DNA of 63,835 bases, counting the filler, from Basidiobolus meristosporus CBS 931.73 (taxonomy: Eukaryota; Fungi; Basidiobolomycota): assembly GCA_002104905.1 (NCBI GenBank). It is 4 parts of 4 records of this genome, joined end to end, with 100 filler letters (N's around TTAATTAATTAA, not from the genome) between each part and the next. Parts side by side here need not be neighbours in the genome. Positions count along the whole stretch, not along the records: positions 1 to 26,993 come from MCFE01000909.1; 3 more parts are not named here. One strand, written 5' to 3'. Positions within the stretch are counted from its first letter, which is position 1; the number at the start of each line of letters is the position of its first letter. This document shows, piece after piece, positions 1-37,990 of this stretch. Made by a program: the position numbers and the translations under genes. The notes beneath the pieces are model-generated. The model saw only the letters and a program-made list of their open reading frames with translations, searched no databases and was not told where the DNA came from.

Positions 1-1439
1 CAAGAGCCCATTACAAGCAGGGCCAAAAGCTCCAGATGAGCATCAATGTGAAGCCAGGTAGCTGGAAGAGTGCCAATTAGGGACAAGCAGGCAGACACAG
101 ATGCACCAGCACACCATTTATCAAGGAAACAGCATAGTACCACTCAAGAAGCACCCAGTCAAGGTAGCAGTGAAGGACCTGGCTGTGATAAGAACCAGCT
201 GCTTTTATAGGAACCCATCACAACTACGGTTGAGAGCTCAAAACAAGCACAAAAGAAATGTCAGGTTGCCAGAAGAGTGCCAGAAGAGCACCAGCAAGGG
301 ACAAGCAGGCCAAAACAGATGCATCAGAGCAGAATTCATCCAGGAGAAAGCGTAGTTCTTTACAAGAAGCACTCAGACAAAGTAGCAGTGAAAGGCCTGG
401 CAGTGATAAAAGAAAAGGCAAAAGGAAAAATGTCTACCCAAGCCTGAGACAGGTAGGCATGCAAAACAAACTGCAGTTCTTGCCAATTAATGCTGCAAAC
501 CAGGAACAGACTGAATCCCATCATAGCCAACAAGTATTACCAACAAGAAAACAGCTGTTTTCACAAGAGTTAGAAGTGCAGCCAGTTGAGCTACACTCCA
601 GCAAGGTAGATGAGTTTGCCAAAAGAGGCAATTTGTCTATCACAGCCACCACAGCCTCCACTGCTGACAGAGTGGAGGTCCCACCAACAGACATGGCTAC
701 AACATCAAGAGCTTGAAAGACTATCACAATGCCTTCAGTGGAGTTTTGGAACATTAATAGGCACACCAAGAGGTTGCACAACTTCTTCACAACCAGTGCT
801 CAAGAAAACACACTGGAATATTGAAAGCATTTATTGCAAAGACTGGAAGATGAGGAGCTAGACCTTGCAGTGCTGGCTGAAGACCAGGACATGTGGGAAC
901 CAGTGAATGAACAGTGGCATAAAGCTGTTTGGTTCCTGCCAAAGTTGTGGAACCAGAGCATTACAGCAGAAATACTGATTGAGTTGTAGATTTTAATGGA
1001 GCTACTTGTTGAGTGTGGGGTTGAGCTTAATGTCAGTGTAGGGTATAGAGACTTGTATAGGTCAATGCAATTGGCAATCAAGGTACAATTGAAGTTTCAA
1101 TGGAAAAGGTCAGATTGTACACATGAAAAGTAAGAAAAACAAATGAGTCAGGAAGTAAGGAGTGTGAAACAGAGCCAATAGCCAATCAACTCACACAAAT
1201 GTAGGAGGTGATAGAGTGTCCAGGATCAGAAAGTGAGCAAATTGACAGGGAACCAATCAAATGCCATTTATACAATGATCTGATGAAAAATCTTGACTAA
1301 GATTTTTGTGTAATCTGGGGTGCAATTATTTTTCAACAGTTTCTGGACAGTGTCCTGACAAGATCAGTACCTCTTAGTCACGGGACTTTAACTTTGTGAT
1401 AGCCTTTTGATGGAATCATCTCAAAAATGTTTCATAGGG
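1..1439 (+). mobile_element. CACTA/CMC-like DNA transposon fragment: 3' part of accessory ORF2 plus right terminus
   Basis: Homologous to 38147-39740 and ~52150-53510. Ends ...TTTCATAGGG at 1439 (reverse complement CCCTATGAAA), fitting the CMCWR terminal consensus; Copia internal sequence follows immediately. Confidence 0.65.
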
Positions 1440-1895
1440 AGAGATAATCAGTAAAAGAAGCCTGAGTATGGAAATGTTGCAACAACTGAAGATATACTAC
1501 TCATATCTGCACTGAATATGACTACAAACAAGGATTCTCAGATGTGGTACATTGACTCTGGAGCATCTGAACACTTTACACACAAAAGAGAACTTTTTAT
1601 CCAATATTAAGAGATTCCAATTAAGAAGGTTTTCATGGGTGACAATAGAATACTTGATGCAGTGGGAGAAGGAACTATCCAAGTAAGCCTAATAAGCAGT
1701 GAAGGAAGCCATACACTGACTTTCAAAGAAGTACTCTATGTACCAGAAATAGCCAAGAACCTACTATCTGTAAGCAAGGCCACTGCAGAAGGACTCAGTT
1801 TCAGCTTTGACAATTCTGGATGCAAGATCACTGATCAAAATGATGCCCATATAGCTTTGGGTATTAGAGATCAGAATCTATACAGGTTGTCTTAT

Positions 1896-3320
1896 CACAA
1901 GATTGTTAAAATGGATGACGAAGAAATTATTAACGCCTTTGAAAATAAAATTATTATTCTTGATGAAGCCCACAATATTAAAGATACTTGTCATGATGGT
2001 GTATATTCTTGTTTGATTAAAATTATGGATCTTACAAAAAATACTAAAATTATTCTTGCTACTGGTACACCTATGACAGATACCGTCCAACAAATTATTC
2101 CTGTTGTAAACGTTTTATTTCCCAAACATATGCGACTAAATTTCCAAACCAAAGATATTCCCAGCTCTCTTCTTTCTGGCATCATCTCTTACAATACTAC
2201 TGTTATCCAAAAACCTTGTGAAGTTTATCATGGCAACCAAACTATTCAAAACATGAAAATTATTTCTGTCACCATGACCGGCCACCAATTGAAGTATTAT
2301 GAAGAGGAAAGCAAAAAGGATGTTAATTACATTTACAGAAGTCTTTCACAAATTTCTTTGTTTGTCTTTCCTGATGGATCTTATGGCAGAACTATCAATT
2401 CCAGCAAGTACTACAGAACTAAACACAGAAAAATTATTATCTCTCCTGATAACGTTTCCAAAAAAATTACTTACCAGAAATATTTCTTGCAAGAAGAATA
2501 CCAAAAATATTTAAGTGGCAAGTTGTTACATATGTCTTCTTGCAAATATTATAGTTTTGTTGAACATATTCATCTTAATACAAGATATCCCGCCTTTGTT
2601 TTTGTCAATGAAGTCCAAGGCTCAGGGTAGATGATTTTAAGTCTTATCTTAGAGCATCAAGGTTACAAATTATATCTTGGGGAAAGTTTGGATACTATAG
2701 AGAAAGGTAAATGTTATACCTTCTGTGTTGGCAGTACAGATATCTCACCAAACAACAAAAATTGGCTTGAAGGCTTTAATTCTCCAAAAAATAAAAATGG
2801 TGAGTATGTACAAATTCTTCTTGGGAGTAAAGTCATTGGCAAAAGTATAACTTTAAAAAATGTTAAACAGTTCCACGGAATTACTCCTCATTGGAATGAC
2901 AGTACTGTTGAACAGGCTGTTGGGAGAGTTATTTGCAGTGGTTCTCATGATATGTTGCCTGAAGAAGAACGTTATGTTGACATTTATATTTATGCTGCAG
3001 TTACACCAGATAATAAAGGTGTTGACAAACTTAAACTTGAAATTTGCGCCCAGAAACAAATGGACATTGTTCATATGAAAAACAAACTTAAAGATGTTGC
3101 CGTTGATAGATATATATTTTGCAAAGAACTCACTGAAAAGGATCTTGAGTTAGATATTACGACGTTTGTTTTATATTATGTGGATAAGTATATGAATTTA
3201 TTTGTCCAGAAGATACAGCTGATATTTAAAGACAAAACCTGGTTGTTTCTGTCTTATGTCTTAAATGCTTCTAATATTAACAAAATTATTTTTATGGAAG
3301 CTATTTACAAACTTATTACA
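1896..3320 (+). pseudogene. SF2 helicase fragment, NCLDV D6/D11 (NPH-I/VETF)-like; lacks Walker A; one in-frame TAG at 2628-2630
   Basis: ORFs 1635-2630 and 2631-3329 are in the same frame. Motif II IIILDEAHNI, motif III ATGTPM, motif V LLGSKVIGKSITLKNV, motif VI region TPHWNDSTVEQAVGRVICSGSH, then PEEERYVDIYIY. Intronless and much more AT-rich than the flanks. Family assignment is from motif recognition, not a database search. Confidence 0.8.
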
Positions 3321-5393
3321 TCCATTTGAAGCATGGTATAGATACTGACCAAGTGCAGAGCATCTAAGAATATTTGGGTGTACAGCACATGCTAAGAAAC
3401 TGCCCGGAAATCAGCCAAAGTTTGAGTCAAAAGTGTAAATGCATATTTTTGGGCTATGGCAATGAGAGTAAGGCATACAGACCCTACAATACCAAAGCAA
3501 AAAAGCTAATCAAGTCCAGGGATGCTTTGTCTGATGAAATTTCAGAATTTTCACAAATAATGACTTCAGATGATGACAAAAATCTGGTCTTAACTCCACC
3601 AATAGTCAGGATTGAATCCAAGCAAAACAATGAAGTTTTTTCACTACAGAGGACTCTACAACCATGGTTCAGCCAGAATCAGCCCCCAGGGATATCCCAG
3701 AAGTGATCATTCCAGTATCAAATGCCTGGAGATCCAATTGGACAAGAAATAGCCCAGACTACTGTGTAAATGAGGGAACAAACTTAGCCTATGCCTATTC
3801 AGTCCATATTGATGACCCCAGACTGTAAAAGAGGCCCTAAATAGCTCTCAGCAAAGTTTGGGAGATCTGCAATGACTGAGCAATATCAGGACCTGATGGA
3901 AAATGAAACTTGGTACTTGGTCAAATTACCAATCAACCAAGAATCAATTGGATGCAGATGGGTCTTCTAGACAGTATATAAGGCTGATGGTACAATTGAA
4001 AGATTCAATGCACAACTTGTGGCCAAGTGATATTCTCAAACAAAAGGACTAGATTATACTGAGACCTTTGCACCAGTAGCCAAGTTTAATTCCATCAGAT
4101 TAATTGTGGCTATTGCAGCCAAATATATGTTTTTTATTCATTAAGTGGATGCAAAACTGCACTTTTGAATGGAGAACTTGATGAGGACATGCATATGGAC
4201 CAGCCTGATGGGTTTGTTGACCAAGATAGCCCCCATTTGGTCTGCAAGCTTAAAAAGTCACTATATGGTCTCAAACAATCACCAAGAGCCTGGAGTTGCA
4301 AGATAGATTCTTATTTGGAATCTCTGAGTTTCAAAAGGAGTAATGCTAACTTTATTATATACTATAAGCCAGATAGAGCAGATCAAGTTCTATTAGCTCT
4401 ATATGTGGATGATCTTATTATAGCCACCAATAATCTAGCAACATTAGAAACAACTAAATCCAGCCTATCTAAGGAGTTCAAGATGTCCAATCTTGGAGAA
4501 CCCAGTTACTACTTAGGGATTAAGTTCTCCATAGACAGAAGTAGCCAGGCTATTACCATAAGCCAATTCAAGTAAAATCAAGATATACTTAAGAAGTACC
4601 AAATGGAAGACTGTAAACTAGTAGCTACCCCAATGGAGACAAACCTTAATTTGGTCAATACTCAACCAAATCAAGAGAGCCTGGTGCAATATGAAAGCCT
4701 GGACTTTCCTTATCAGCCTATGGTCAGCAGTCTGATGTATTGCATGCTTAGAACACTTCCAGATATCTCATATTCAGTGGGAGTTGTCAACCAACATAAT
4801 CAGAACTATGGATCTGATCATATTGCAGCAGTTAAGCGGATTTTCAGAAACCTAAAAGGAACTGCTGATATCTGCTTACAATACACCTATAAGGATTCAG
4901 AACAGGATCTTGTGGGAAACTCTGATGCTGATTGGGGACATAATTTAGAAGACAGAAGATCCACTATAGGATACACCTTTCTTTACTGTCAAGGAGCAAT
5001 TTCATGGAATTCAAGAAAGCAACCAACCATAGCACTTTCTACCCCAGAGGCAGAGTAAACGGCATCCTGTGAAGCTACAAAAGAAGCAATGTGATTAAAA
5101 AAGCTTTTTACAGATTTAGGCCTATATTAAAGAATGCCTATTACTTTATTTCAAGATAATCAAGGATTTACACAATTAGATAGAAATCAAACTCTTCATG
5201 CTAGAACTAAGCACATAGATACTGGACATCATTTCACATGTGAAGCTATAAAGAATAACTTAGTTAGCTTAGTTGACTGTCTTTCAGATGAAATGATTGC
5301 AGACATATGTACCAAAATATTAACTAGAGACAAGTTTAAATATCCTAGGTCAAAATTAGGACTAGTCAGTATGAACATTTAGCTGAGTGGGAG

Positions 5394-5740
5394 TATTGTA
5401 AAAACTTGTAATTCCACCTAAATATTCACCCAACTTAGTCACTTAGATCATTACTTGCAAATCCTAGAGAATACTGATCAAATCCCCTGTTGGATTATAC
5501 ATAGAATATTTTCACCAAAATACCAGGTACCCAGAACATAAAATTCTCAAAGTTGTCCAAACAGCCCCACACTTTGCACACATGCTCTTAGGACCTTTGT
5601 TAGCCCACTCTATCTGTTTGTTATGCCAAGACCATATAAAGGTATAAATACTACTTTTACATTCAAAGATCATAAAGTGAAAACCACATAATCTACTTGT
5701 CCTCCCAATTGCTTCCAATATCTCCAAGACTCTTACAGCA
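5394..5740 (+). repeat. Copia 3' LTR
   Basis: Follows the PPT. TATTGTA...TTACAGCA, matching the family LTR with mutated termini. Confidence 0.92.
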
Positions 5741-6013
5741 ACAAAGAGGCAATAGCCAATCAATGCACACAAACACAGGAGGTGATAGAGTGTCTGGGAT
5801 CAAAAAGTGAGCAAATTGGCAGGGAACCAATCAAAAGCCACCTACATATTGTTGTGATGAAAAATTTTGACTAAGTGTTTTGTGAAATCTGGGGTGCAAT
5901 TATTTTTCAACAGTCTCTGAACAGTGTCCTGACAGGATCAGTACCTCTTAGTCACAGGACTTTAAATATGTGATGGCCTTTTGATGGGATCATTACAATA
6001 ATTTTTCATAGTG
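5741..6013 (+). mobile_element. CACTA/CMC transposon right end
   Basis: Homologous to ~1170-1439 and ~53240-53510. Terminates in ...AATAATTTTTCATAGTG, whose reverse complement is CACTATGAAAAATTATT. Confidence 0.7.
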
Positions 6014-7330
6014 TGTCCTTTATGTACCAGTCTCTCATATCCATTACAGACTTGAAGGTAATATTCCTGATAAGGTTGGAATATGTTGGTACTTGCAACT
6101 TGACTTGTCCACCTAACTCCCTTCAAATCCACTCCAAAGGAAACTTCCAAAGGCAATGAAAGGCCCAATATTGTTTGCATGCCAAACAAGATGAAGTAGA
6201 GATAGATACCATAGTGGATCTACCTATTCAGCTTCTGACCCATTGTATTGCTGCTCAAATCCAATCACAAACTCCTTGCATAAAAGCTCTATATGTGTCA
6301 AGTTAGCACTAGCAATCTTCTTGTGGATAAATATTCCTACAATGTCTACATATGACTCCCATTGCTTCCAATGCTCTATTGGTAGAAATTGCTTTTGAAG
6401 GCCACTTAGATAAATCCAGTTCATCCAATTCTTGCATTGCTATTATAGCTCATGAGTTTAAATATTAATGAAGTTTGTGGGAAAATCATTGGGTATCAGA
6501 AACCCTATGCAAAGTAAATTGGTTCCATGGGTGGATCAAATCCAGATCAATAGTCAGTATCCCTCAATGCATGCATTATAATGCTGGCATCATGGAATTA
6601 TCAACCCTCTACATAATCTTGTGAAGAGATTGTGTCAGTGTTTTGCTGAAGTTACTGCCAAATAAAGTTAAAAGTTTGACAGTGCTTAAGCAGTCTTTTG
6701 ACAGAAATTGCATGGTATTCTAATGGTCTTAGTGCACTCAGCATGTATTTAATTAGACCTAACCAGCTAATACATCCAATTGCCTTAGATGGCTAGAAGC
6801 TTGATGATATTCTGGCAGCCACATTGTGGACCTCTGAATGCCTTATAATGGCAGTACAGCAGCCAACAGCTAGTTTGATATAATGATACCATATCAATGT
6901 ACCAAATGGCATTATTTTCTACCCTCCATTACACCATCCACATACATGTGCCCAGAAAAGCTGGCTATCTTGCTGATGGCTGGGGTGTCTCCAATGCAGA
7001 TATTGATAAGTACTTTGATATAATGGCCTTTACTAGTGTCCCACTGAATAGCCTAAATATTCATCCAGTAATAGATTCAGGCAGCTATTCAGGTTGCATG
7101 ATGATTTAGGCCCAGATACCAGTGAGACTAGCATTAGATCTCTGCTCTGATACTGTAAGACAGGTGGCAGATTCAAGTTAATGAGAATCAGTGGCCAGCA
7201 GGATTTGCCAGCAGAATACTTGTTAAGTAAAAATGCCTCAAGTGCAAAGCAAAGGCATGATCATACATATCTTTAAAGTAGTCCTTACTTCTTAGTGATT
7301 TGTATTGTTTGCCATCAAATATATTGGAAA
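6014..7330 (-). mobile_element. Degenerate CACTA (Tnp2/Transposase_21-like) transposase fragment
   Basis: Minus-strand translation gives LMLVSLVSGPKS.CNLNS.LNLLLDE and, after a frameshift, ICIGDTPAISKIAGFSGH. Homologous to 48106-49195 and ~60240-60702. Confidence 0.72.
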
Positions 7331-7335
7331 TGCTG

Positions 7336-10300
7336 GTCAGGTGAATATTTAGGTGGAATTGCAAATTTTTACAATACTCCCACTCAGCTAAGTGTTCATA
7401 CTGACAAGTCCTAATTTTGACCTAAGATATTCAAACATGTCCCTAGCTAATGGTTTGGTAAATTTGTCTGCAATCATTTCATTTAAAGGACAATAAACTA
7501 AGCTAACTAAGTTATTCTCTATAACTTCACATATGAAATGACGTCTAATATCTATGTGCTTGGTTCTAGCATGAAAAGCTGAATTTCTACCAAATTTATA
7601 CATCCTTGATTATGTTGAAATAAAGTAATAGGCGTTTTTTGACATGGGCCTAAATGTGTAAAAAGCTTTCTTAACCACATTGCTTCTTTTGTAGCTTCAC
7701 AGGCTGCCAGATACTCTGCCTCTGGGGTAGAAAGTACTATAGTTGGTTGCTTTCTTGAATTCCATGAAATTGCTCCTTTACAGTAAAGAAAGGTATATCC
7801 TGTGGTAGATCATATGTCTTCCAGATTTTGTCCCCAATCAGCATCAGAGTTGCCCACAAGATCCTGTTCTGAATCCTTATAGGTGTATTGCAAGCAGATA
7901 TCAGCAGTTCCTTCTAGGTATCTAAAAATCCGCTTAACTGCTGCAATAAGATCAGATCCATAGTTCTGATTATGCTGGCTGACAACTCCCACTGAGGATG
8001 GGATATCTGGACATGTTCCAAGCATGATATACATCAGACTGCCATCCGTAGATTGATTAGGAAGTCAGGGCTTTCAGATAGCACTAAGCACTCTTAATTT
8101 GATTGAGTTTTGAACAAGTCAAGGTTTGTCTCCATTGGGGTAGCTGCCTGTTTACAGTCTTCCATTTGGTACTTCTTTAGCATATATTGAATACACTTAG
8201 ATTGGCTTAGAGTGATAGTCTGGGTACTTCTGTCTATGGAGAACTTTATCCCTAAGTAGTAACTTAGCTCTCCTAGATCTGACATATTGAACTCTTTAGA
8301 AAGGCTGGATTTAGTCTCTTCCAATGTTGCTAGGTTATTGGTGGCTATTATAAGATCATCCACATATAGAGCTAATAGAACTGAACTTGCTCTATCTGGC
8401 TTATAATATATACTATATTCAGCATTACTCCTTTTGAAGCCCAAAGATTCCAAATATGAATCTATGTTGCAATTCCAGGCTCTTGGTGATTGATTGAGTC
8501 GATATAGAGACTTTTTAAGCTTGTAGATCAGCTGGGGGCTATCTTGGTCAGCAAACCCATCTGGCTGGTCCATGTAAACATCCTCATCAGGTTCTCCATT
8601 CAAAAATGCAGCTTTTACATCCATTTAATGAATAAAATACTTATATTTGGCCGCAATAGCCAATATTGATCTGATGGAATTAAACTTGGCAATTGGTGCA
8701 AACATCTCAGTATAGTCAAGTCCTTTTGTTTGAGAGAATTCTTTGGGCACAAGTTTTGCTTTGTATCTTTTGATTGTGCCATCAGCCATGTATTTTGTCT
8801 TGAAGACCTATTGATTTTTGGTTGATTGTTAATTTGACTAAGTCCCAAGTTTCATTTTCCATCAGGGCCTGCTATTCCTCAGTCATTTCAGATCTCCAAA
8901 ACTTTGTTTGAGGGCTATTTAGGGCTTCTTCTACAGTCTGGGGCTCATCAATATGGACTGAATAGGCATAGGCTAAGTTTGTTCCCTCAGTGATATAGTA
9001 AATTGGGCTATTTCTTGTCCAATTGGATTTTCAAGCATCTGACACTGGAATGATCCCTTCTGGGATATCCCTGGGGGCTGATTCTGGCTGAATCATGGTT
9101 GTAGAGTCCTCTGTAGTGAAAAAACTTCACTGTTTTGCTCTGATTCAATCCTGACAATTGGTGGACTTAAGATCAGATTTTTGTCATCTTCTGATGTCAT
9201 TTTTGTGAAAATTTGGAATCTTCATCAAAGAATACATCCCTGGACTAGATTGGCTTTTTTGCTTTGGTATTGAAGAGTCTGTATGCTTTACTCTCATTGC
9301 AGTAGCCCAAAAATAAGCATTTTACACTTTTTGGCTCATATTTTGACTGATTTCAGGGCAGCTTCTTGGCATATGCTGTACACCCAAATTTTGTTATATG
9401 TTCTCCATTTGGTCTGTATCCATATCATGATTCAAATGGAGTAGAAACACAAAGTATTCTGCTACAACTCCTATTTTTAGGGAATACAGCTGTGGCAACT
9501 AATTCTACCCAAAAATCATAGGATAATTTTTGATCATGGATGATAGATCTTGCCATATCTATTATTGATCTGTTTGCACATTCTGCTACGTCATTTTGCT
9601 GTGGGGAGTTTGGTACAGTAGCCGCTTGCTTTATTCCATGAATCTTACAGAAGTGGATGAAGAGTTTAGAGGTATTTTCTCCACCATTATCAGAGCATAT
9701 TTTGTTGATTTTTTCACCAGTTTCTCTGTCCACCATGGCTTTGAACTCCCTGTAGATAGACAGAGATTCATCCTTTCACTCCATGATGTAGACCCACATG
9801 TATCTTGTGTAATCATCAATAGAAGTGATTGAATACTTCATCCTGCCTTAGGATAGGTTTTGCATATGTCCACACAGATCTGAGTGAATTAGATTAGACT
9901 TTTTCTTAGTTTTGATTAGCCCAGAGCACTTGGACAGTAGTCTGGCTTGTTTCCCATATTTGCAGGCTTCTCAGTGCTACAAATTAGCTGGGGGATCAAT
10001 TTTTACTCCGGAAATTAGCTGATCTTTGATCATTTTGTGCAAATAATCAAAATTGATGAGCCCAAATCTCCTGTGCCAAAGCATTAGTGTTTCTTCATTT
10101 AAGTTACTTATGTTGGCTTCCAAATATGATGGAATATAAGTCAACTTGTATAGATTCTGATCTCTGATACCCAAAGCAATATGGGCACCATTTTGATCTG
10201 TGATCTTGCATCCAGAATTGTCAATACTGAAACTGAGTCCTTATGCAGTGCCCTTGCTTACAGATAGTAGGTTCTTGGCTATTTCTGGTATATAGAGTTC

Positions 10301-15625: not shown

Positions 15626-16310
15626 GGATCTCCTGGCATTTAATACTGGAATGATCACTTCTAAGTGGATAATGAGTGGCTAGATATTATTGCAATATTA
15701 GGGTGTGGAAAGGTGTGGCCAAATAGAACTATTTCAGCCATCTATGATGCACAAATAATAAGCATAGGCCATCCTATAGTAGTACAGGCATCATTGTGAG
15801 AATGTTAGGGGATAGTTGACATCCCACTACAACCCTATGATGCCAGTTATCATACAGGTCTTTCCTCAATTCTTTGCAACACATCTCTAACTTTAGTTTT
15901 ACAAGCTTCAGGGAGAAATATTGATTTGTGCTTAGACTGTATAGTCTGAAATTGGTACAGATGGGAGCTTGGAAGGGGTTTAGTCAATATAGTATACTAA
16001 GTATAGTGTCAAGAGAGTAGTGCAACAGTAGGGCATTAGTGCGAAGCAAAAGTAGGTTCACCTTGAAATTTCCATTAGCTAAGAGCAAGGCATATTGACA
16101 CAAGAAAACAACAAGTAGCACCATAGGATGGGCGACAGGAATCCTTTAATGATATCAGCAGAATTTGATTGCGTGGCATACGGATCCCAAACTGTTTGAG
16201 TTTGGTTGGGATTCTTTTAATCGCTTGCCTCATTTTGCTGTAGTGCCGCTTCAGAACAGTTAGATTTTATTTTCCGGAGTTTCGGAAGACCACGCTTCAT
16301 CACCATGGTG

Positions 16311-16318
16311 TATAAATA
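16311..16318 (+). promoter_or_regulatory. Candidate TATA box of the PLA2-like gene
   Basis: TATAAATA about 45 nt upstream of the ATG at 16363. Confidence 0.5.
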
Positions 16319-16362
16319 ACCAGCAGTCAGGATAGTTCCTAGTGGAGAATTGCTCGCTAACC

Positions 16363-16830
16363 ATGCTCCTCCGTACTATAGCACTGATGCTGGTCATAGG
16401 CTCTGGATCATGTGAGCCCCACCTCGGGATGCGTTACGATGCCACTCCTCCGCCCAGCTGTGTGGACGACAAGCTGGGCAACCACACGGTAAGCGAACAC
16501 AATGCCTGCGACTCCATAGTCAAGACATACCCAATGTATGAGCCGTGTTGTGTGAAGCATCGCGAATGCTACAGCAAGTGCGGACCGACAGAAACAAAAG
16601 AAGGCTGTGACAATGAGTTTCGATTCTGCCTGCAGCAGACTTGTGGGGCTGGAAAGCGAAAGTTCGTTCGTAGCAGGTGCAACACTGGCTGGTCTTGGTT
16701 CGGGCCCGGGATGAACAGCCACAGAGTGGCGGAGTCTTCTGATTTCAGTTGTAAAGAATACGCAGCCAAACAGGCGCAATCTTGCCATGACAGTGATCCC
16801 GCCGAGCCCTCCCCGATCTCGGAAGAATGA
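16363..16830 (+). CDS. Secreted cysteine-rich phospholipase A2-like protein (group XII-like fold), probably catalytically impaired; 155 aa, intronless
   Basis: Signal-peptide-like N-terminus MLLRTIALMLVIGSGSC. CCVKHRECYSKCG...KEGCDNEFRFCLQQTC matches the sPLA2 pattern CCxxHDxCYxxC...CDxxFxxCL. ATG at 16363 is preferred over the GTG used in the ORF track. Confidence 0.75.
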   Translation: MLLRTIALMLVIGSGSCEPHLGMRYDATPPPSCVDDKLGNHTVSEHNACDSIVKTYPMYEPCCVKHRECYSKCGPTETKEGCDNEFRFCLQQTCGAGKRKFVRSRCNTGWSWFGPGMNSHRVAESSDFSCKEYAAKQAQSCHDSDPAEPSPISEE

Positions 16831-17275
16831 TTTTGCGTCGAGTGATTAATCTACTCAGTGATTGATCTATTTAATGGAGCCAAGTGATTAATCTATTTAA
16901 TGGAGTGGCTGCAGAGTCATGAGCAGCAAGAAATTAATATGAACCCCAATAAAACCTTGCATCGAACCTTGCATCGTCCACTTCGCCATCTCCACACTGC
17001 CTGAATTGAGGAATGAATTTGGAACATCACGCTCTTTGGCCACTGATATGGCGATCTCGGCTCGATACGGTAGTGCAATTTAGCCATCTTTACCCATGGG
17101 AGAGGTGGTACATTGAGGTGGATGGAAATTTCGATTTATTTACAGGTGGAGAATGACTGAACCATCTCCAAATCAAAAATTTTACAGCTTAAGATTACTT
17201 GGTGACTCTGCCAAATAACTACTTGGTGACTATGCCAGATAGGAGAACGAAAGAGGAATGGGTTTGGGCTGCACC

Positions 17276-18312
17276 TCAGCGGATAAGGCAGGTGCGGTAT
17301 GTGTCGATGGTGATTTCCTTGTAGGAGGGTAGTTTCGGAGCGACGCTTTCCTCTACTGGTGTGTAGACGGGCAAACTCTCATCCTCCTGTCGTTTATGAG
17401 TGATCTCAATATTGAACGTGATGTAGCCACACTCGATCTTCCCATTGATGTCAAATCCCACCAATACGATGACTTCATGACTGGTCTGAATATACTTGGT
17501 TGAGCATCCTGGCTGAAAAATGTCATTTTTGGGCAATCGGACATTGAACAGGAATTCGCTACAGCTAACTGCTTGGTTGCTAATCTCGCGCCACTGCTGA
17601 GTTTTCTTCGAGTTTTCTTCTCCCAAGCTGACGTTTTGAACCAATCTGAATGCCACCCGGCGGACTTTCACCTTTTCCTTCAGAGGAAGAACCTTGACAT
17701 GTAATGGTACGACTTCCCCTAGGGTGTAGTTCCTCTTGGGCGCTTGGATACTAACGCTGGCCGCGGACTTGTACACCTGAGTAATGTGAAGCGACTCATC
17801 ATGGATGTCTGCACCCACTGAACGAAGGAATCTTTTGACGAGTACGGGCTTTTGGATACGGATATCGCAAAGAATATGAGGCCGCTCGATAGTGGCTTTG
17901 AGGCGGTAGGTTATTTGACCAAATTGAGTCACTACAGTCTCAGGAAGATGGCCTGGGAATCGGTATTCGAATTCAAAGGCATTTTTCCCAACGGCAAGAG
18001 AGTAAGTCGAGTTTGGCTCGATAAGCGTCAACGTGTCGTCCAGTATTATTTTGTTGGTGCCGTCAGAGTGACCTTTAGAGAAATTCGAGTTAGTCGATGT
18101 AAGGGACGGATCCTCGTTGTGTCGTGCATACCTGACTCCCGTATAATCTGAGCTCTTCCTTCAAGTCTCAATTGGATGGATTTGATCTTGGTCACCTTTT
18201 TCACATCCAAAATTAGTGCGCCTCGGAAGGCAACGCCAGCAGCCTCAGAGGGACTCCCATGCAGTATGATTGCAGGCTTCTCCAGGAGAATCTCACAACA
18301 CGAAGATTTCAT
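17276..18312 (-). CDS. Alpha-arrestin (ART-family ubiquitin-ligase adaptor); 2 exons (18312-18132, 18072-17276), 325 aa
   Basis: Arrestin-N motifs (RGALILDVKKVTKIKSIQLRLEG; FEFEYRFPGHLPETV; ITYRLKATIER) and C-terminal PY-type motifs LPVY and LPSY. A 59-nt GTATGC...CTAAC...AG intron joins the two ORFs in frame. Confidence 0.88.
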
Positions 18313-19388
18313 GATAGTTGTCGCGGACAGTTATGATTAATGAACAGAAACCGTCTCGCAGATACTTGGGCTATATATACGGCGGCTGGTCAAGGACTGA
18401 ACGACTCGGTTAAATGCATTCCACCATTTAAAGGAATCCCATATTCATGAAGATCCACCTCCCCTAGACTGCTTCGCAGACAGCAGATGCCAATCATCTG
18501 AGACTATTGAATGCCGAATATAGGGCTTGTATTAGGTTATTGGCAACAAGCCAAGGTGGGATCGGTTTAAATGATTACCAGATAAACTTTTGGCCAGAAT
18601 AGTCCAGATGTTGGGCATATTTGGGCTGCATGTGATGAGTGATATCATGTGTATTCTTAGATAAGCTTGATGACATTTTGGCATCTGCCACTGCTGGCAT
18701 CGCTTTTCAATACTGACAAACAGCTTCACCATTGGACGCTGCGAAAAGTGGGTATTACTTATTGCCGTTCTACAGAGCACCCTGATCAACCGCTCCCACG
18801 CTTTGAATCCTCTGTTGCTTATGATGGATAGCAACGACCATATGTCAGATGAAGTCCCAAAGTGACATACCCGCCATTGTCACCGTGAAGGAGTTGAGTG
18901 GGTTCCCGTTAACCTTAAGCAGCGGAGATTGACCACTTCAAATGGCAGTAGTCCATAGTAAGCCAGCCGTTTTAGATAAACTCTTGCCTTAAGAGCTGGG
19001 CAGCGTGTAACGGGAAGCGGTAGTTTGTTGGCTGCTTTTGGCCCACTGGATTCTTCATTTGGCAGGTCGGATTGGAAATGGCCTGTTTCACACCATTTCT
19101 ATTTTCTGTTACAGCATCGACCGATTCTAGACGAAGGATAACATGAATGTTCCTTACTAATCATTGGAGTCCGCACGTTTGTGTAAGCTTGAATTTCAGT
19201 TTGCTAGCTCTGGAGAATCACTCACAAATTGAATCTTGATCTCCAAGACGAATCAGTAGATTCGATTTTTGGACCTTAGATCTGTTGCCGCAGTAAGGTG
19301 CCAAATTCAACATACCTGCTGTATGTTCTGTGAGGGATTGCTTACCTGTGTATAGCATATGATCTGTAAAACTTAGATTCCATGTACA

Positions 19389-21654
19389 ATGTCTGACTTC
19401 AACAAATTCAAGCTTCCAAGTAAAAGCACCCAAAAGCCACAACCGAGACGTAAGACTCCATTGAGATCTGGGTTTGAACATCAGGAAGAGGAAAGCCCAA
19501 CCCGGCCCCGATTTCTTTCCAAATTTAATGTATCCTCGTCCATTTTTGATAGTATAGGTATTTTACGATTCAGAGCGCGTTCGAAATGCTTTGTAGCAGC
19601 TCACTAGATAAACCATGCAATTTAATATTTTAGACAAGTTTAATTCGGAAACAAACGTAGAGAAAAGTGGGATAATTGAAGAGGACAACCTTACCGGATC
19701 GCAAGCCCCAATCTCATCTCCTTCCAGAAATGCTGTCAGTTTCGCTGCATTTGTTCGTAGAGATCCGCTTCAGATCCAGCCTTCTACTGTGAAATGCGCT
19801 AGCGATGAGGGTGCTTCTAAGGAGGAAAATGGCACGCACATTGATAAACATTTATCCAGAAAGCAAATGTTGGAAGGTGCCCAATAATCACTTTATTTCA
19901 CGATGATTAAGCCTGCTTATGTCTTTTGGAATATGGTAGAATTGAACCCGACCAGCCTTGTCGACATAGCTGTTAATACTGTTAGCCCAGACAAACACAA
20001 GAAACCAGCTTGGCGAGGTATTTGTTACTGGCACGACACTTCATCCCATAGATAAGAAATGAACCTCATGCCCCCGCAGATAATGCTTTCTCTGGATCCT
20101 ATACACCACCTAATCGATATATCTTCGGGAGTCCAAAGAACGATAGACTCCCAGAGAATTGGCTAAGTCTCTCGGATGGTACATTTTTTACCCGCCTATA
20201 CACACTAGCAGAACGCTAACAATGCAAATTTATTGGTCAGACCCATCGGTGTACCCTTTTTTGACCAAGAGAGACTCATTTGGCAGGAAAGCAGGTACAA
20301 GTGACCCAACACACATGTCGGATTGCCATGTCAGTCCGGCTTCAAAATATCGATTTAATATCAAGCAAATCATCGAGAACGAATCCTCTCGGGGGCTCAA
20401 GGTATCTAAGTGGTATTATGGTTAAACTGCATGCTTTCGTTGAATGACTTTGGAAATGCCCTGCGTAAACTATTAGGAGGAGATCGAAGATTTCGTTGAT
20501 AACTCGCAGGTACGTTTGAATTCCTATTAATAGATATAGCAACGCATCTCTATATTTGCTCATTGTTTTACGGAACCTCGCTCTGACTAATGCCTCTCAG
20601 TTAAGTAATTGGGGAGAGGGATGTCCAGCTACCGAGGTTCATATGTCAACTGATCCTTCCGATAATGTATGTTGCCCTTCATTTCAGCCCTTTATCAGCA
20701 CCCCGAATCTGACGCGGGCTCGATTCTTTAGCTTGACCAAGATTGCTCAGCTTCTTCCTATTTGTCTGATGTCGAAGCTCCCCAATCCCCGGTCCATCCC
20801 GGGACATCAGCACAAACCCCGGGAGGTGGGTCGGCTTGTACTACTAACGTTTGTACAACTGAATCCCATCCCATTAGTGGAAATATCTCCATAATGGAAT
20901 TGGCACAAAACCCCAATTTCCTGAGCCATACGCGTAACTCCCATGATATGCCACTAGTAAGTCCGATGCAATGGCTTAATGGAGTGAAGATCCCAACCGC
21001 GTTGACGACCAGCACCAACGATCACCAGAGGAAGCGCAAGTACATGATGAGGTAAGGTGAGTTTCGTGTACAGTCAAATCCCTGACTCGTGTTTACAATC
21101 TTGCCTGGCTAGGGGCGGATATGAGGAGCGACTTGTGAACCTCTTGATCCGAGAAAAATCCGACCACGCAATATGGGCACACGGCCTACGACGTGAAGGT
21201 ATGGCATGGCTTGATGAAATCATCGCTAGATTCTCACGTCTTGATTATAGATAACCACACAGCCACCGAACGCAATCCGTCACTTTATGTAGAAGTGTAC
21301 CATGTGAAGGAAACCTATGGATCCATTATCTGTCGCTGTAGACTGCTTCCTTTGGATGCCATTAACGAGAAAGCCACGCACATTGATTTGCCCCCATTGG
21401 AGGATGAGTTTATTGATATACTGCTTTGTATGGAGCTTGATCCCAGTCACAGCACCCTCGCTTCTCGTCACTCGACACAGCCAGATCACGCAATTCATGT
21501 GGGAGATCTGCTGAAGATATACAAGCCTTATCAGGAGTTTACGTTCGGTTCATCAAGTATACTGGACGACTGGGAAATCCCTCGAAATGGGCTGATCGTT
21601 ACTCGATTCGTGGTTCGCAGCTCCGATGTTTCGGATAGAGATAAACCCATTTGA
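19389..21654 (+). CDS. Multi-exon (~9 exons) protein with a SPIDR/DUF4502-like motif and a possible C-terminal OB-like domain
   Basis: GT-AG introns can be threaded in frame (e.g. exon 1 19389-19557, exon 2 19634-19876, last exon 21251-21654). A Ser/Pro-rich N-terminus precedes KRKRKYMMRGGYEERLVNLLIREKSDHAIWAH and LYVEVYHVKETYGSIICRC, resembling from memory the GGLAERL..L..RE.S...W.H segment of SPIDR. Confidence 0.6.
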
Positions 21655-23035
21655 AGTCAGTTGAAAGTTAGAACGTTGTACTTATCAAGCAACCTCGTGT
21701 GACTTATCCGCGAGTTGTCAAGAATAGCAGTGTAGTGTACGAGATTTGTCTATGGGTGGATGCAGCCGGTGATAGGCCAAACCAAAAATGTCAACTTTAA
21801 TCTTAATACTCTAGATATCGGTGCGTGCAAATCCTGAACCACCCTGGCAAACCTCGTGTTTTGTTTGCATCCTTGCTGATCTCGAGGCTCACATCGCTGC
21901 TGTTGATAGGGAGTATGAAAAGGGTTAGAAAACTAGTATTACAAACCATTACTTTAGGCTTTGTTACGAGAATTCACCAATACGTGAATGGGGACAAATA
22001 AACCTCAACAAAACATGCTATCTGTTGTCTGACATTTCGTTGCTGCTGTAAACCATTTCATCACACCAAGTTGTTTTTATACTTGATCCCACATACGGCC
22101 AACTTGAAGATCTCCGCCTTTTCAATACCACACATTCTGAGTCAATATTTAGTATGTGGGTAGCAATGCTCATCACAAGAGTGCATTATGAAGTTACATA
22201 GCATTATTAATCCTAGAAATGTGTTGTAGAATTGCACTTCATCACATACTTACTCATCCCATCCTTTCCTTATTGGAATAACACCTACCTTGTCACATAC
22301 TTGCTCATCTTTATTTGAGTGGTTGACCTAGAAATTAGCTCTTTGAATTCATATTATGTGAGAATAACTTGGAGCAGTAAGAGGGATGAGAAAAGGTAGG
22401 GACAATAGCAAAGAAGAATAAAATCCAGGGTTGAAATATACAATAGTCATTTCCAAGGTTAAGCAATCTACCAACAATCCAATGAATGAAAATGAGGATA
22501 AAAATAAACAAATGAATTTAGCAGAAAACATGCACAAGTAGTTGGTTACAAGCCGAAACGAATAAAATGACTAAGGGGGAGCCTAAATGCATCAATTGCA
22601 TAGATAGATCCATAGACGATGTGCTAATATCCACCAGCAATGAGAAGCATAGATTGAGAACCCTTCGCCAATTTCCACGTTTGTTGGAGTTCATTTGTCT
22701 TACCTTCGTGGGACATCTCGGGGACGCAAGTTATATTTAGAAAACCGGACCCAATGCAAATCCTTTTCAATATTGGCAGTTACATCAACAAACCTGAATT
22801 GCCACCTGAGTTGCCACCTCTCTTAATCTAGATTAAGTTGGTTGATTTGACCTAAACCAATTGGAAATGGGCAGCATGACAGTACAACGCCAACTTCATC
22901 AGCTTCACATGCGGTATTCCAAGTCAAAAAAATTTTCCTACCCATTGGCCTCCGTTCCTACTAATTGCTATAAGCCATCGTATTTTGGACAGCGCCCTTT
23001 GTCCAATTTCCTCGTATTTTGCTTTCGTTTGTAAG

Positions 23036-24612
23036 ATGTTTGAGAGGTTTCGGTTTGGAAAACAGTCCGGTTACGTATCAGAGGAGGCGTTAAACAATCT
23101 CCGCTTCTACAAATATGCTGCGGAAGACAAGTCCTACATCAGCCATTACATTCTTCGCCACTACTGGAATTATGTGGTCGAGTTGTTTCCACTATGGATG
23201 GCGTCAGTATTGTGCTTCCCTCACCGAAACCCGTCAAGCCTTTTCTAATCCTCGCTCACTTTAGGCCAAATTTGATAACTTTGTGCGGGCTAGGCTTTGT
23301 CGTCATTAATTTCATATGTGTTCTAATCTACACACCCGACCTCGAGACACCCGCCCCTTCTTGGGTCTACTTCAGGTAGAGTTAGACTCCAAACATTATG
23401 AACGCTCCTCATTCTAAGTGTATATCTTAGTTTTGCCTTGGGGATCTGGCTTTATTCAACCTTTGACAATGTCGATGGTAAACAGGCTCGTCGAACTGGC
23501 ACCTCTTCTCCTCTTGGCGAACTCTTTGACCATGGCTGCGACGCGCTCAACTGTTCTATTGGTGGGATAGTCCAAGCAGCCGGATTAGGACTAGGGTTCA
23601 GTTGGTACACCGTTCTGATCACCGCTATGAGTATGTATTGGGTTTTCCTCTCTCACTGGGTCTTTGCAAGTAACACTTCAACGTCGACAACTATAGCCAC
23701 CATTCCTTTCTATCTATCCACTTGGGAGGAATATCATACCGGAGTTTTGTACCTCGGCGTCGTTAACGGACCTACCGAGGGTCTCATAATATCTTGTCTT
23801 ACAATGATCCTAACCGGAATCTACGGTACAAACTGTATTTGGTCCTTAGAATAAGCATTCTTGGGTCTAACGCTTATATTAGGCCCCCAAATGTGGAGAA
23901 CTTCTATTCATGATATCTTGGGTAACTCCACACCTGGGTTCATTCCGGAGAGCGCCATTCTTCTTGATGCGGTCTTTGTCGTTATGTACGCCTTGTTGTT
24001 TGTAGCTGTTGCCCCAGCAAGGTAGGTCACCCCCAGACGCCTACTGATGATTTGGTGATTTACACTTCATATACATAGTTTCATCGCTGTTTACAAGACA
24101 TGCCAGAGCAAATACCAGGACTACACCACCGCCTTAACTCAACTGCTCCCCATGACAGTGTACCTGGCCAGCACCTATTTGTGGCTTGCGTCGCCTTACT
24201 CGTATATACTGGAGAACCACTTGATCCTTTTCATTCTGACCATAGGAATCGTGTTCGGACGTATGGCCACCAAGATCATCCTGTCCCACGTTACTAAGAG
24301 CAGATTTCCTATGTACACAGTATTAATGCTGCCGATCGTAGTTGGCGCACTGCTGACCAATATACCTTATGTCCTTGGAATGTAAGTTTACTTTGGACGC
24401 TTGTTGCACCTTGTGCATCTTACTCAACTGTTCTCGTGAACGATAGGCAACCACTCCTTGGCCCAGTCACCGAGCTGTGGTATCTGATCCTGTTCTTCAT
24501 CTTCTCCGCTGCTGCCTACACCAACTGGGCTCTGTTAGTGATCGACAGCTTCTGCACACATCTTGGAATCAGTTGTCTAACGATCACCAGCAGACCCTAC
24601 AACAGACTGTGA
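23036..24612 (+). CDS. EPT1: Choline/ethanolamine phosphotransferase (CDP-alcohol phosphatidyltransferase, EPT1/CPT1 family), multi-exon
   Basis: N-terminal YKYAAEDKSYISHYILRHYW...LWMAPNLITL; catalytic motif DGKQARRTGTSSPLGELFDHGCD; multiple hydrophobic segments; ends ...LGISCLTITSRPYNRL*. EPT1 and CPT1 cannot be separated from sequence alone. Confidence 0.92.
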
Positions 24613-24970
24613 AAATAGAAAAGCGATTACATCTGTTGCGCCCACAGACGGATGTTGTACCAACAATATTTATTTTGTCACTAACCCAGCCCAGTCTACT
24701 AATATGATCGTCATTGCCCATGTTAATCTCGTCAAGTCAATAAAGTCCATTTCCATGTCCGAATGCAATCAACTGAACCACTGGCTATCGCCGAGGATCC
24801 CTGGATTCGGCTTTTTTTTAGCCAAATTTTTTTTGGCATTTTTTTTTCTTTTTGACTGGGTAAACGAGGCGGATTCGGGGTGGTGGTGAATGAATAGACA
24901 CCAAGCGTGGACATCCCAAAATACTTCGGTGGAAATAGTTCGTTCGTACTCTCGTTAATAATAATACGCC

Positions 24971-25552
24971 ATGACAAATCCTCTGGAGCAATTGGCCAAC
25001 ACAAACACCTGCGGTTCCCTCATTTTCTGCAAGGAATGCGGAAACCTTCTGGACATGTTGGGTGACAACGACATCATTGTATGCGGCATGTGTGGACTCA
25101 CCCAGAAGACTGACGGTGGGACTTGACCTTCCTTAACCATTGCTAGAAGTCTGGTTTCTGACGTAGTGTTTTTGCTTAGCTTTCGGCGACTTTGAGGTGA
25201 TCACACGTAGTAGTGAGCACGCTTTCCCTTCAGCCCTGAAAAACAAGCGCTCTCTGGTTCAGCAGCAACCCAAGAAGCGTGAAGCCGCAGCCACGGTACT
25301 TTCCCCCTGCTAACACGAAAAATGCCCACCAGCAACTAACCCTCCGCTCCAACAACAGATCAAAGAGAAATGTCCCAAGTGTGGTGCGCCCGAAATGTCC
25401 TTCCATACCATGCAGCTTCGTTCGGCTGATGAAGGACAGACCGTTTTCTACAACTGTACGAAATGCGGGTATGTAGCCAATAGTGCCTCCTCATGTTCAG
25501 TGGTTTCTGACGCTTTCTTTCCTCTAGTTACAAATACTCCATCAACAGTTAA
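24971..25552 (+). CDS. RPA12: RNA polymerase I subunit A12.2; 4 exons
   Basis: N-terminal Zn ribbon FCKECGNLL...CGMC and C-terminal TFIIS-like ribbon [40 protein letters not shown], including RSADEG. Confidence 0.93.
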
Positions 25553-25827
25553 TTCTCTGGGCGTCCGATGGTTTTCCTACTTTATTTCTCGGGTGTTGCG
25601 GGATCACTGGTTCCGTTAGACGATTTCATTTGATTGCAATGTATAGACAACGAAAAGTATTCTGAATAAATCTTGCCGACATACTTCCTCTCTACAAATG
25701 AGTCGATGGTGTATTTATTCAATTCTAATTGGAAGTAATATAATGTACGTCATTACAGTTACAGTAAACGGGGCTTTGATGGGCGGTGGTCAATGAGGTT
25801 TATGGGTGGTTCGTCAAGAGGAGAAGA

Positions 25828-26704
25828 TCACTGATGCTTGGACTTCTTCTTGGCGCTCTTCTCTTTCTTGGGCTTCTTGGATTTTTGGGGAGTCGAAGGT
25901 GTACTCTCAACCTCGGCAATCTCCCTCTTCTCCCCTAAAACGCGGGTCAGTATTGAGGTTGACGCCGTGCGAAATGGATGGCATTCCTACCTGTGTCGAA
26001 GCCATAGGGTTTGAATCGCATTTTAAGTCCTTCGGGGTGGGCGCGTGGGACGTATTCACGGTCACGAATGGTGGTGGCAACTTCGGTCGAGTCAGGGATA
26101 TCGACTTTCTGAACGAGATTGAGCTTGCGAGCGAACTTGGTAGGGGCTAATCAACAATAAATCTTGCTTGAGAACCCAGTATTCCACTGCCAATGCGACT
26201 TCCTAACGATCCTTACCGCTAGTGTACTTGCTTCCCTTGGCACCGTTAGGCAACAGACAGTACATGGCGTCCATCTCTTGACCGCCTCTGGAGTTGGATT
26301 TTTCGTTATCCTCCAGGACTTCAAAGAGCTCGTATTCCCGCTCGGCAGCAGCCTTCAAACTGCCGATTTTCTTCTCCTTCCCTTCGGGGAGTTTGATCTT
26401 AAGGCCGTTCAGTTGCTCTGCAGAAATCTTTCGAGAAGTCAATCGGACTAAATCACTTGAACTACCGAGAAGTACCCTTCAAACTTACATCGAGTGGAAC
26501 ACGAATCAACCACAGTTCTTTGTCGTCGCCGATCTCTGACAGTTGGAACGGGGTTTCCTGGGTGAATTTGGCCAAGGCGAAATCTTCGGGTGGTTGATAT
26601 TCCCTAGGAAGCAATTCACGTTGGTTTAGTCAAGTTTCCAGCCTCCAGGGCTGGCCGACAAACGAGTGCCGGACACCGGCCCGAACTTGGGGAAATGCTT
26701 ACAT
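25828..26704 (-). CDS. RPA34: RNA polymerase I subunit A34.5-like; about 5 exons
   Basis: The spliced product reads MEYQPPEDF...KELWLIRVPLDISAEQLNGLKIKLP...HPEGLKMRFKPYGF followed by a Lys-rich tail (KSKKPKKEKSAKKKSKHQ*). LWLIR.P, GLK.RF.P.G and the basic tail are hallmarks of the A34.5 family. The start is uncertain (AT|G split by an intron). Confidence 0.82.
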
Positions 26705-26993
26705 GTTGTCTAGTGGACCTTCTCTATCTGGAGTACTTGGGGAAATAAAACAAAAATAAAAAGGTTACCCACATATTTGGGAATGGTACGAATTTGTTGG
26801 TTAAGCAGGGTTTTTTTCATCCCGATTTTTTTTTCTTACACATTCAGTCACAAAAGTCGTCTAAGTTATGCAAATTGCCGAATGGTCGAGTGTTGCTTGG
26901 TAGCGAAACATTTATGTGGTCTTTGGGTGGAGTTCTAGTTGGAACCTATTGTATGTATGGGTCATTATGGCGGTAGGAGAGACTTATGTAAGT

Positions 26994-27093
26994 NNNNNNN
27001 NNNNNNNNNNNNNNNNNNNNNNNNNNNNNNNNNNNNNTTAATTAATTAANNNNNNNNNNNNNNNNNNNNNNNNNNNNNNNNNNNNNNNNNNNN
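26994..27093. other. Artificial contig spacer
   Basis: 44 N + TTAATTAATTAA (stops in all six frames) + 44 N. Confidence 0.99.
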
Positions 27094-36200: not shown

Positions 36201-37990
36201 TTCTTCCCAGATAAATTGGGTGTTCTTTCTCTGTAGGTGGTAAATTGGTTCTGCTATCTCAGAAAATCTTGGGATCCAGATCCTAGAGAACCCACAAGCA
36301 GCCACAAAGCCACAAGCTTGTGTGAGATTTGTGGGGGTAGGCCAGTTGCATATCTTTTGTGTCTTGGAGTCTCCAGGTGCATGACCAAAGGTGTTGCATT
36401 ATTGTCCAACAATGGATATCTCTGATACACCAAAGCTGCTTTTCTCACCACTGATGGTGAGTCCAGCTTCTTCAATGGCTCCTAATATGGCATCATTGTC
36501 TACAATATGGTCATAGACAAACTTTCTTACTCCAGGCATAAATTCAGTGGTGTCCCAGAATTTTGGTCCTTTGATGCCTATGTCATCCACAAAGACAGCA
36601 AGTTTCTCAGGTATAAACTGATACAGCACATTTACCATGCATCTCTGGAACTGAGCCATGGAGTTTGTAGCCCCTTGACTGAGTCTTGTCATCCTTAACA
36701 GTCCAAATGGTGTCTGTAGTGCAAACATATCTCTTGATGTCTCATCAAGGGGGATCTGGTCATATCCTGAGTAGAGATCATATGTTGAGTAGATGGAGTG
36801 GCCACTAAAGCTTTATGCAAAGTCATCAATAGATGGAGGTATAGCAGCAACTCTGATAGTGACAGCATTTGTAGGTTGCATGTCTTGAGTGAATTGGAGC
36901 TTTCCATTCTTCTTTTTGGTCACAAACCATCGGTTAGCATAGGGTCCATGGCAAGGTTCTAGGATACCAGCTTCTATCTTCTTCTTAAGTAGATCATGCA
37001 CATCAGCTTGGAGTCCTCTGGGCAGTGGATAAGGCTTAAATGACCAGGGTGTGTGGGGCACTGTATGAATCTTGATGGGTTTTTCAACCAATGTCTTTAA
37101 GAGTCCCATCTCCTTGTCATTATATGAGAAGACCTTATCATGCCTTTTCAAGGTCTCCTTGAATAATAGTATCTCCTCTGGTGTTAGGTTTCCATCACCA
37201 ATGATAAGTTGCTTAAGTCTCTCAGGTGTAAGTTGTATATCATCTGGTGTTTCTTCTGGTGGTCTAATGTAATCAGCAGGTTGAGATCCATCAGTCAGTG
37301 GGGTAAGTGATGGTCTAATCTTCTGTTCTACTGTCTTGTATTTTGTTTGAACCATAGCTGTTTGCTCCTGTATACCTAATGAGCAGCTCCAAATGTTGGG
37401 GTGTATATTGTCAGGCTCTTCATCTTCTTCCATAACAAGATGTGCCTTCTGGCAAGCAGTATGTATCCTCATATTGTTGGGTGTTACACCACAGAAGGTT
37501 GACTGAAGTCCTGGATTGGATCCTTGTATGGTGTACCATACTGACCCATTGGAATAGTTGGTAGTTGTAGCCTTAGTACTGGTTTCCCATGGTCTACCTA
37601 GCAGAAGGTCAAAGTTTGCCTTCTGGCAGATGAAGAGGGGAAGCCAGACCTTGATTCCTTGTACCTCAATGGGAAACTTGTGTACTACACCGTAGAGTGG
37701 ACTAGATCCTGAGTTTGCATTGGTCATGTTCCATCCAATATCTCTATCAACAGGCAGTAGCTCCTTGCTTTTAAGTGTCTTCCAGAAGTCTAGCGGCATA
37801 ACACAAATCTCTGAGCCACTGTCAATATGGCAGTCAACAGGGTCATCATATATATACCCTTTCACCACAGCAGTTGCAACTGAGTAAAAGGTCTTATATT
37901 CAGTAGTGTTGTCATCCTTTTGGTGGTCTTCATGGTTTGTCTGAATTATATGAGTGTCCATATGTTCAACAGCTTGTCATCTTGTTGGTA
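33268..37990 (-). mobile_element. 5'-truncated Ty3/Gypsy retrotransposon (PR-RT-RH-IN plus 3' LTR), defective
   Basis: Minus ORFs: 36813-37961 (protease HIDSGSEI), RT pieces (SGYDQIPL, FVDDIGIKG), 35166-36305 (RNase H, HHCC zinc finger), 34428-35063 (integrase C-terminus with GPY). PPT GAGAGGGGGGTGGA and LTR 33268-34346 (TGTAG...GTTACA). Confidence 0.95.

Follow-up and report, generated by a model that had tools for sequence, protein, structure and literature searches.

The window analysed here, a stretch of 63,835 nucleotides from Basidiobolus meristosporus CBS 931.73 (assembly GCA_002104905.1; four parts joined end to end), contains a decayed Copia retrotransposon in which the integrase-coding segment is replaced by foreign sequence. 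In a self-BLAST of the window, positions 1428-1895 are 91.9% identical to positions 44303-44770 of a younger Copia copy, and positions 3321-5740 are 90.0% identical to 45466-47892, which reproduces the identity break at 1895 and the restart at 3321 described in the initial annotation. Between these points lie 1,425 unique bases (1896-3320) that are single copy within the window by both self-BLAST and tblastn. The same two points enclose 694-695 bp in all four sister Copia copies of the window, none of which carries the insert, and the proposed replacement of 695 bp by 1,425 bp is upheld accordingly. In the youngest sister copy (43209-47892), the counterpart of the insert is the 695-bp plus-strand segment 44771-45465, corresponding to residues 221-452 of the open reading frame at 44111 and comprising the HHCC region and the integrase core. 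The insert lies on the same strand as Copia and is collinear with the segment removed; its flanks keep their order and strand and, in Copia coordinates, are separated by just 695 bp. As previously annotated, the left junction (1895/1896) is in frame and the right junction (3320/3321) is out of frame.

The left flank (1428-1895, plus strand) encodes the end of the gag zinc knuckle and the protease domain, with 2 stops in 156 codons, and the right flank (3321-5391, plus strand) encodes the SH3-like region, the reverse transcriptase and the end of pol, with 7 stops and 7 frameshift indels across 597 compared codons. A 3' LTR follows (5392-5740, plus strand); it is 88.3% identical to the LTR of the youngest copy, is altered at both ends relative to other LTRs, and bears 14 private changes at 243 sites. 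No 5' LTR of this copy was found within the window, and neither of the marks of a mobile lineage, a young intact LTR pair and a target-site duplication, was seen. Just ahead of the left junction, two sites within the 12-base stretch 1884-1895 set the host Copia apart from every one of its four sisters; they may reflect decay or a trace of the joining event. The youngest copy, for its part, has LTRs that are 98.9% identical, yet contains a stop at 45479 and a frame change near 46240-46276.

Copies of an unclassified repeat family occupy positions 1-1439, 5743-6017, 38147-39726 and 51671-53514 of the window. The first overlaps the gag end of the host Copia by about 12 bases where the two join (1428-1439), the partial copy at 5743-6017 follows the host Copia 3' LTR, and one copy adjoins Ty3/Gypsy open reading frames at 34428-37976 (minus strand). 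An open reading frame of this repeat (39008-39517) gives a weak match to a partitivirus capsid (E 0.0066, under the cut-off) that is possibly due to chance.

The 475 codons of the insert (1896-3320, plus strand) contain SF2 motifs II-VI in order (DEAHN, ATGTP, LLGSKVIG, TPHWN and QAVGRVI), just as first listed, and lack motif I and the C-terminal third of the gene. Pfam searches returned SNF2-rel_dom and Helicase_C, and no NCBIfam model came near its cut-off. Among solved structures, only two matches were obtained at E<=0.01, to NPH-I (6rfl_Y) and VETFS (7amv_W), with E values of 3.5e-12 and 5.4e-11; no cellular helicase was among them. D6 and D11 are the vaccinia genes for the VETF small subunit and NPH-I, respectively. 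The structure scores for the two are near equal, and a match to NPHI_C is weak and under its cut-off. The insert shares motifs II-VI with both vaccinia proteins; however, the relation is distant, the vaccinia proteins having 631-637 residues and the insert's family about 800-950, and, unlike vaccinia D6 and D11, the window piece is broken and devoid of motif I.

The nearest full-length relative, P0174, is an open frame of 956 residues on a Logan contig; it is 86% identical to the insert, which corresponds to its residues 173-647 and begins after motif I. Eight of the nine Atlas rows listed for P0174 are 100% viral, with Nucleocytoviricota commonest (the ninth is not recorded), and one cluster bears the name early transcription factor 70 kDa. 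Three IMG/VR contigs carry relatives at 40-43% identity. The neighbours of these genes include PolB and RNA polymerase subunits on all three contigs, a 629-residue Rpb1 piece and UDG on two, and Rpb2, Rpb5, a cap methyltransferase and a ligase on one each. Together with the tree grouping described below, the solved-structure matches, viral neighbours and Atlas clusters identify the insert, by sequence comparison, as a piece of an NCLDV D6/D11-like SF2 helicase gene, as first proposed. A check against cellular helicases likewise favoured the original assignment, the nearest characterised relatives being VETFS and NPH-I rather than cellular SNF2 proteins, and a cellular origin appears very unlikely. 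A scan for close relatives of P0174 returned no loci in viral contigs and one distant locus (22%) in metagenomes. Among the helicase-related proteins listed (14; 120 of 193; 3), none had a retroelement Pfam domain, and hence no fused Copia-helicase product was seen.

Several features of the wider helicase group bear recording. In L003, a fundsalphavirus-like contig, a phage-type lysozyme with a peptidoglycan-binding domain (8289-9290) lies directly upstream of the helicase. In L001 (9523-12939) and L002 (12760-16533), the interval between the helicase and Rpb1 encodes a large protein (1138 and 1257 residues, respectively) that bears a mannose-binding B-lectin domain and may serve in host attachment. 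The group also includes records labelled as the alga Spirogloea muscicola (P0011), a chytrid, Spizellomyces sp. (P0054), and a Phenylobacterium MAG (P0175), the last label being likely a case of misbinning; none of these three names is in the species list of Gong et al., in the portion of that paper available (PMC7017919).

A near-identical match to the insert comes from the same species. P0008 (ORX78497.1), a partial B. meristosporus protein, is identical to it at 147 of 151 residues (97%) and runs 308 residues beyond the right junction point; a B. ranarum helicase piece is 82% identical. In a FastTree analysis of 77 rows (the window piece, the named matches, the top matches and every third of P0056-P0107), the window piece, P0008 and P0174 group with support of 100, within a larger 27-row group (support 90) that contains P0231, four other Mortierellaceae records and the three IMG/VR genes; the tree holds no named virus or cellular reference and drew long-branch warnings, and shows grouping only. 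P0008 lies on a contig of 33,329 bp, the size of MCFE01000822.1, and P0231 on one of 16,401 bp, the size of M. elongata KV442190.1; both contigs were matched by species and size, not by DNA.

These two contigs connect the insert to a described lineage. Fundsalphaviruses are Pithovirus-related NCLDV fossils that share D5, a D6/D11-like helicase, a methyltransferase, RPB2, RPB5 and a split RPB1; they have been reported from 14 fungi, B. meristosporus and B. heterosporus among them (PMC7017919). In the accessible part of that study, the 33,329-bp B. meristosporus contig MCFE01000822.1 is a fundsalphavirus element with POL and Helicase_C, and both it and KV442190.1 fall among fundsalphaviruses in the helicase tree; retrotransposon sequences lie near some elements and were suggested to aid integration, and two viral polymerase pieces of B. 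meristosporus, spanning 612 bp (MCFE01000191.1:77124-76513) and 468 bp (MCFE01000333.1:22315-21848), sit among Copia domains. The window piece resembles these elements in its helicase type, its decay, the retrotransposon domains nearby and the 97%-identical B. meristosporus record, and its source was likely a fundsalphavirus of Basidiobolus. The description of the source as an unknown virus is not supported, since the group has already been published from B. meristosporus and B. heterosporus (PMC7017919). The cases differ in that the published screen, as far as its accessible text describes it, used DNA polymerase and listed the flanking domains, whereas the window holds a helicase piece alone; a base-level collinear swap for a Copia integrase segment was not found in that text. 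No part of the polymerase or the other genes of L001-L004 was detected in the window by tblastn, in which 61 queries (the L001-L004 open reading frames and five helicases) matched only the helicase insert; no capsid gene was seen in the window either.

A second group, the Mycodnaviridae, is alike in that giant-virus DNA is integrated in early-diverging fungi (PMC13533422). According to the sections of that paper available, however, these viruses occur mostly in zoosporic fungi, as complete proviruses that carry capsid genes and reach about 350 kb, and they are placed near Algavirales and Imitervirales; the word Basidiobolus occurs 0 times in its main text.

The reading frame of the insert is interrupted by one stop (2628-2630), whereas the other five frames contain 15-49 stops each. 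In addition, the conserved arginine of motif VI is lost in the window copy. Inspection against the requirements of a working helicase shows that the piece starts past motif I and that its frame is closed by the stop at 2628; because motif I is missing and stops occur upstream (1452 and 1608) as well as inside (2628), no functional product is expected, and the helicase piece is dead and most likely without a function. Its GC content is 31.6%, compared with 37-38% in the Copia flanks, a moderate difference that bears out the lower GC of the initial annotation but not its wording of 'very AT-rich'. The CpG counts given there, 14 in the insert and 3 in 3321-5400, were reproduced. The observed/expected CpG ratio of the insert is 0.39, as against 0.93-1.10 in the three IMG/VR relative genes, and this low value may reflect methylation after arrival. 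The claim that the insert is itself decaying was borne out by the stop, the lost arginine and changes of CpG type.

Elsewhere in the window, positions 15663-27096 form a CpG-rich, single-copy island (observed/expected 0.78, GC 44.6%) among CpG-depleted repeats, its edge probably representing a sharp methylation boundary between genes and repeats. The island contains an arrestin gene (17276-18160, minus strand), a CDP-alcohol phosphatidyltransferase gene (23402-23854) and a group XII phospholipase A2-like open reading frame (16336-16830) that is under the cut-off. A second unique, CpG-richer stretch lies at 55525-57658 (observed/expected 0.57), in which the one open reading frame examined has no Pfam match. 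The top cluster for the arrestin is commonest in Zoopagomycota, in agreement with the early-diverging fungal host that had been proposed.

To establish whether the junctions are real, contigs assembled from the public runs X1, X2 and X3 were compared with the window, 32 of 35,676 matching pieces being listed. X1 and X2 derive from one sample, possibly the window's own source, and represent a separate assembly rather than a separate strain. An X2 contig of 228 bp (1848-2075, plus strand) differs from the window by one letter and crosses the left junction, 48 of its letters being Copia. No contig bridging the right junction was present among the 32 of 35,676 pieces listed. Contigs at 2134-2524 and 2589-3205 match the window without a single other letter, the stop at 2628 included. 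The fungal arrestin, the bridged left junction, the stop and the CpG-type changes mark the insert as resident, and decaying, in a fungal genome.

Contigs that match the insert exactly have depths of 85-97, in line with a 2-kb contig of another locus carrying a 91%-like gene piece (95-99), with that contig as the only baseline; the left-junction contig, at 143, is above this range. Across 15 bins within the insert, the summed X1 depth is 85-402, as against 10^5-10^6 on the Copia flanks. Between 2847 and 3028, a single contig accounts for the whole depth, and no second copy resembling P0008 is visible. Depth shows no sign of amplification of the insert and allows one or two copies. Together with the four sister copies that lack the insert, these values lend no support to the multicopy, virus-carrying retroelement lineage that had been envisaged. 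Other contigs bear small deletions at 2104, 2256 and 2556; the same sample holds further decayed pieces of the helicase gene.

Run X3, which has another organism code and comes from another study, provides a view of the gene outside Copia. One X3 contig matches 1895-2326 after 54 other letters, and another matches 2779-3324 and then continues for about 600 other letters; the helicase gene is uninterrupted in the X3 source. The X3 matches overrun the left and right junctions by 1 and 4 bases, respectively, and the chance of 3-4 matching bases at a junction is 0.02-0.006. The overlap on the right (3321-3324, plus strand) is a likely microhomology of up to four bases, and the pair suggests that the junctions formed at short microhomologies, with the caveat that the overlaps were observed in a relative instead of the donor.

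We next considered the age of the insert relative to its surroundings. The frame is broken once in the 475 codons of the insert, whereas the 753 Copia codons contain 16 breaks, of which 9 are stops and 7 are frameshifts (p=0.003), although frameshifts in repeats may be assembly errors; with stops alone, the comparison (1 in 475 versus 9 in 753) is borderline (p=0.055). Substitutions point the same way. The insert differs from P0008 at 4 of 150 residues, all four private to the window and three of CpG type, and P0008 itself has no private change; private changes affect 49 of 400 Copia codons (left flank, 6/85; right flank, 43/315), as against these 4 of 150 in the insert (p=0.0003). At columns conserved in three relatives, the insert differs at 12 of 191, 7 of the differences being of CpG type where the null share is 6.6%. 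Compared with the right Copia flank, the insert is clearly the younger of the two. Against the left flank alone it is not significantly younger (p=0.10-0.18), the flanks themselves differing in private base changes (9/290 on the left versus 89/1193 on the right, p=0.005), a skew that one sister Copia copy also shows (p=0.017). The CpG contrast was rejected as a clock because the Copia family is CpG-poor anyway: the aligned left flank contains no CpG in any of the five Copia copies, and the youngest copy has an observed/expected ratio of 0.17. The proposal that the insert arrived after Copia had decayed therefore survives for the right flank, on break and substitution counts, but not on the CpG evidence, and not significantly for the left flank.

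We consider it somewhat probable (roughly 0.55) that the insert is a dead viral helicase fossil, likely from a fundsalphavirus, that was patched by DNA break repair into an already decaying Copia copy. End-joining can capture foreign DNA. In such a sequence of events, a break or gap would arise in an old, methylated Copia copy, and viral DNA would be captured there, having been present in free form during an infection or having been copied from an endogenous viral sequence at another genomic site. End-joining or templated repair would join the pieces at microhomologies of 1 and up to 4 bases, with the viral DNA serving as filler or template and displacing the 695-base integrase segment; the new patch would then be methylated, lose CpGs and gain a stop. 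DNA-level repair is favoured because the patch is younger than its flanks, because the arrangement was seen at one locus, because the junction overlaps are short, and because the ends of the 3' LTR are altered, such that of the two routes initially put forward, reverse-transcriptase template switching and break repair, the evidence leans to the second. Set against it are the sense orientation and in-frame left joint, which have a chance of 1 in 6 and suit an RNA route, as well as the non-significant left-flank test, the unbridged right junction and the depth of 143 at the left one.

The RNA route remains the principal alternative, albeit an unlikely one: a viral transcript would have been copied into Copia cDNA by two template switches, and the resulting decayed hybrid, lacking an integrase, would have been integrated by the enzymes of another copy. 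The shared strand, collinear replacement, in-frame joint and junction depth all fit this account, as do the two B. meristosporus polymerase pieces among Copia domains (PMC7017919) and the short overlaps at junctions of virus-retrotransposon chimeras from Drosophila cells (PMC5857290). However, the decay of the flanks exceeds that of the insert, so that this route requires the remobilisation of a template already in decay; moreover, the 3' LTR is altered at its ends and carries its 14 private changes, no sister copy holds the insert, and depth gives no hint of amplification. Orientation discriminates little, since the viral sequence is opposite in the Drosophila chimeras (PMC5857290). As far as the available text of that study goes, the insect chimeras resemble the window case in joining viral sequence to an LTR-retrotransposon, with short overlaps at some junctions, but derive from RNA viruses and are circular DNAs formed by reverse transcription during infection, with the viral part of the cloned examples running the other way; in the window, a gene from a dsDNA virus is fixed in a fungal chromosome. 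A broader form of the RNA route, which we regard as rather doubtful, holds that Copia particles of Basidiobolus repeatedly capture transcripts of a living Pithovirus-related virus and swap gene pieces into pol. The further step of treating the helicase piece and the two published polymerase pieces as products of one such route is no less conjectural.

Two further histories fare worse than break repair on the same data. It is improbable that an older viral insertion survives here as an island, with two Copia copies having landed on either side and deletions having trimmed the three pieces together. The window is indeed a nest of truncated repeats, the host Copia itself being joined to another repeat at 1428-1439, and the flanks differ in private changes; yet an island that predated the Copia arrivals should show no less decay than they do, whereas the insert shows less, the flanks lie in order on one strand with just 695 bp between them in Copia coordinates, and their skew recurs in a sister copy. 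An assembly chimera of a repeat with viral or contaminating DNA is highly improbable overall. In its favour, each flank belongs to a repeat of very high copy number, no piece among those listed bridges the right junction, and P0008 is partial, its record ending inside the helicase gene. Against this stand the X2 contig across the left junction, the exact contigs that include the stop, and CpG-type decay that fits residence in methylated host DNA, and a chimera is left possible for the right junction only. Finally, derivation of the insert from a cellular SNF2-type helicase, whether fungal or bacterial, is largely refuted: the SNF2-rel_dom and Helicase_C matches, the fungal labels of several named matches and the Phenylobacterium label of one are outweighed by the absence of cellular proteins from the solved-structure matches at E<=0.01 and of NCBIfam models near cut-off, by the viral gene neighbours and Atlas clusters, and by the match (species and size) of fungal-labelled P0231 to the published fundsalphavirus contig KV442190.1 (PMC7017919).

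Earlier work had already described the virus lineage, recorded it in Basidiobolus and noted that it lies close to retrotransposons (PMC7017919). What the locus adds is a base-level anatomy for a link that Gong et al., in the part of their paper available, suggested from neighbourhood only; in the literature searched, outside which most subscription papers lay, no case was found in which part of an NCLDV gene had been exchanged collinearly into the pol of an LTR element. That link concerns the way in which giant-virus DNA comes to lie within the retrotransposon arrays of fungi; the capture of viral transcripts by Copia, if true, would be the DNA-virus counterpart of the insect virus-retrotransposon chimeras. 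The low decay of the insert, the 97%-identical copy without a private change, the B. ranarum version (82%) and the intact 86% gene suggest that Basidiobolus was infected recently by a lineage hitherto known as fossils. On the broader Copia-capture reading, the intact 956-residue relative, with versions of the gene in three Basidiobolus-like sources, would point to a recent or living virus. Basidiobolus is thus a genus in which to look for it.
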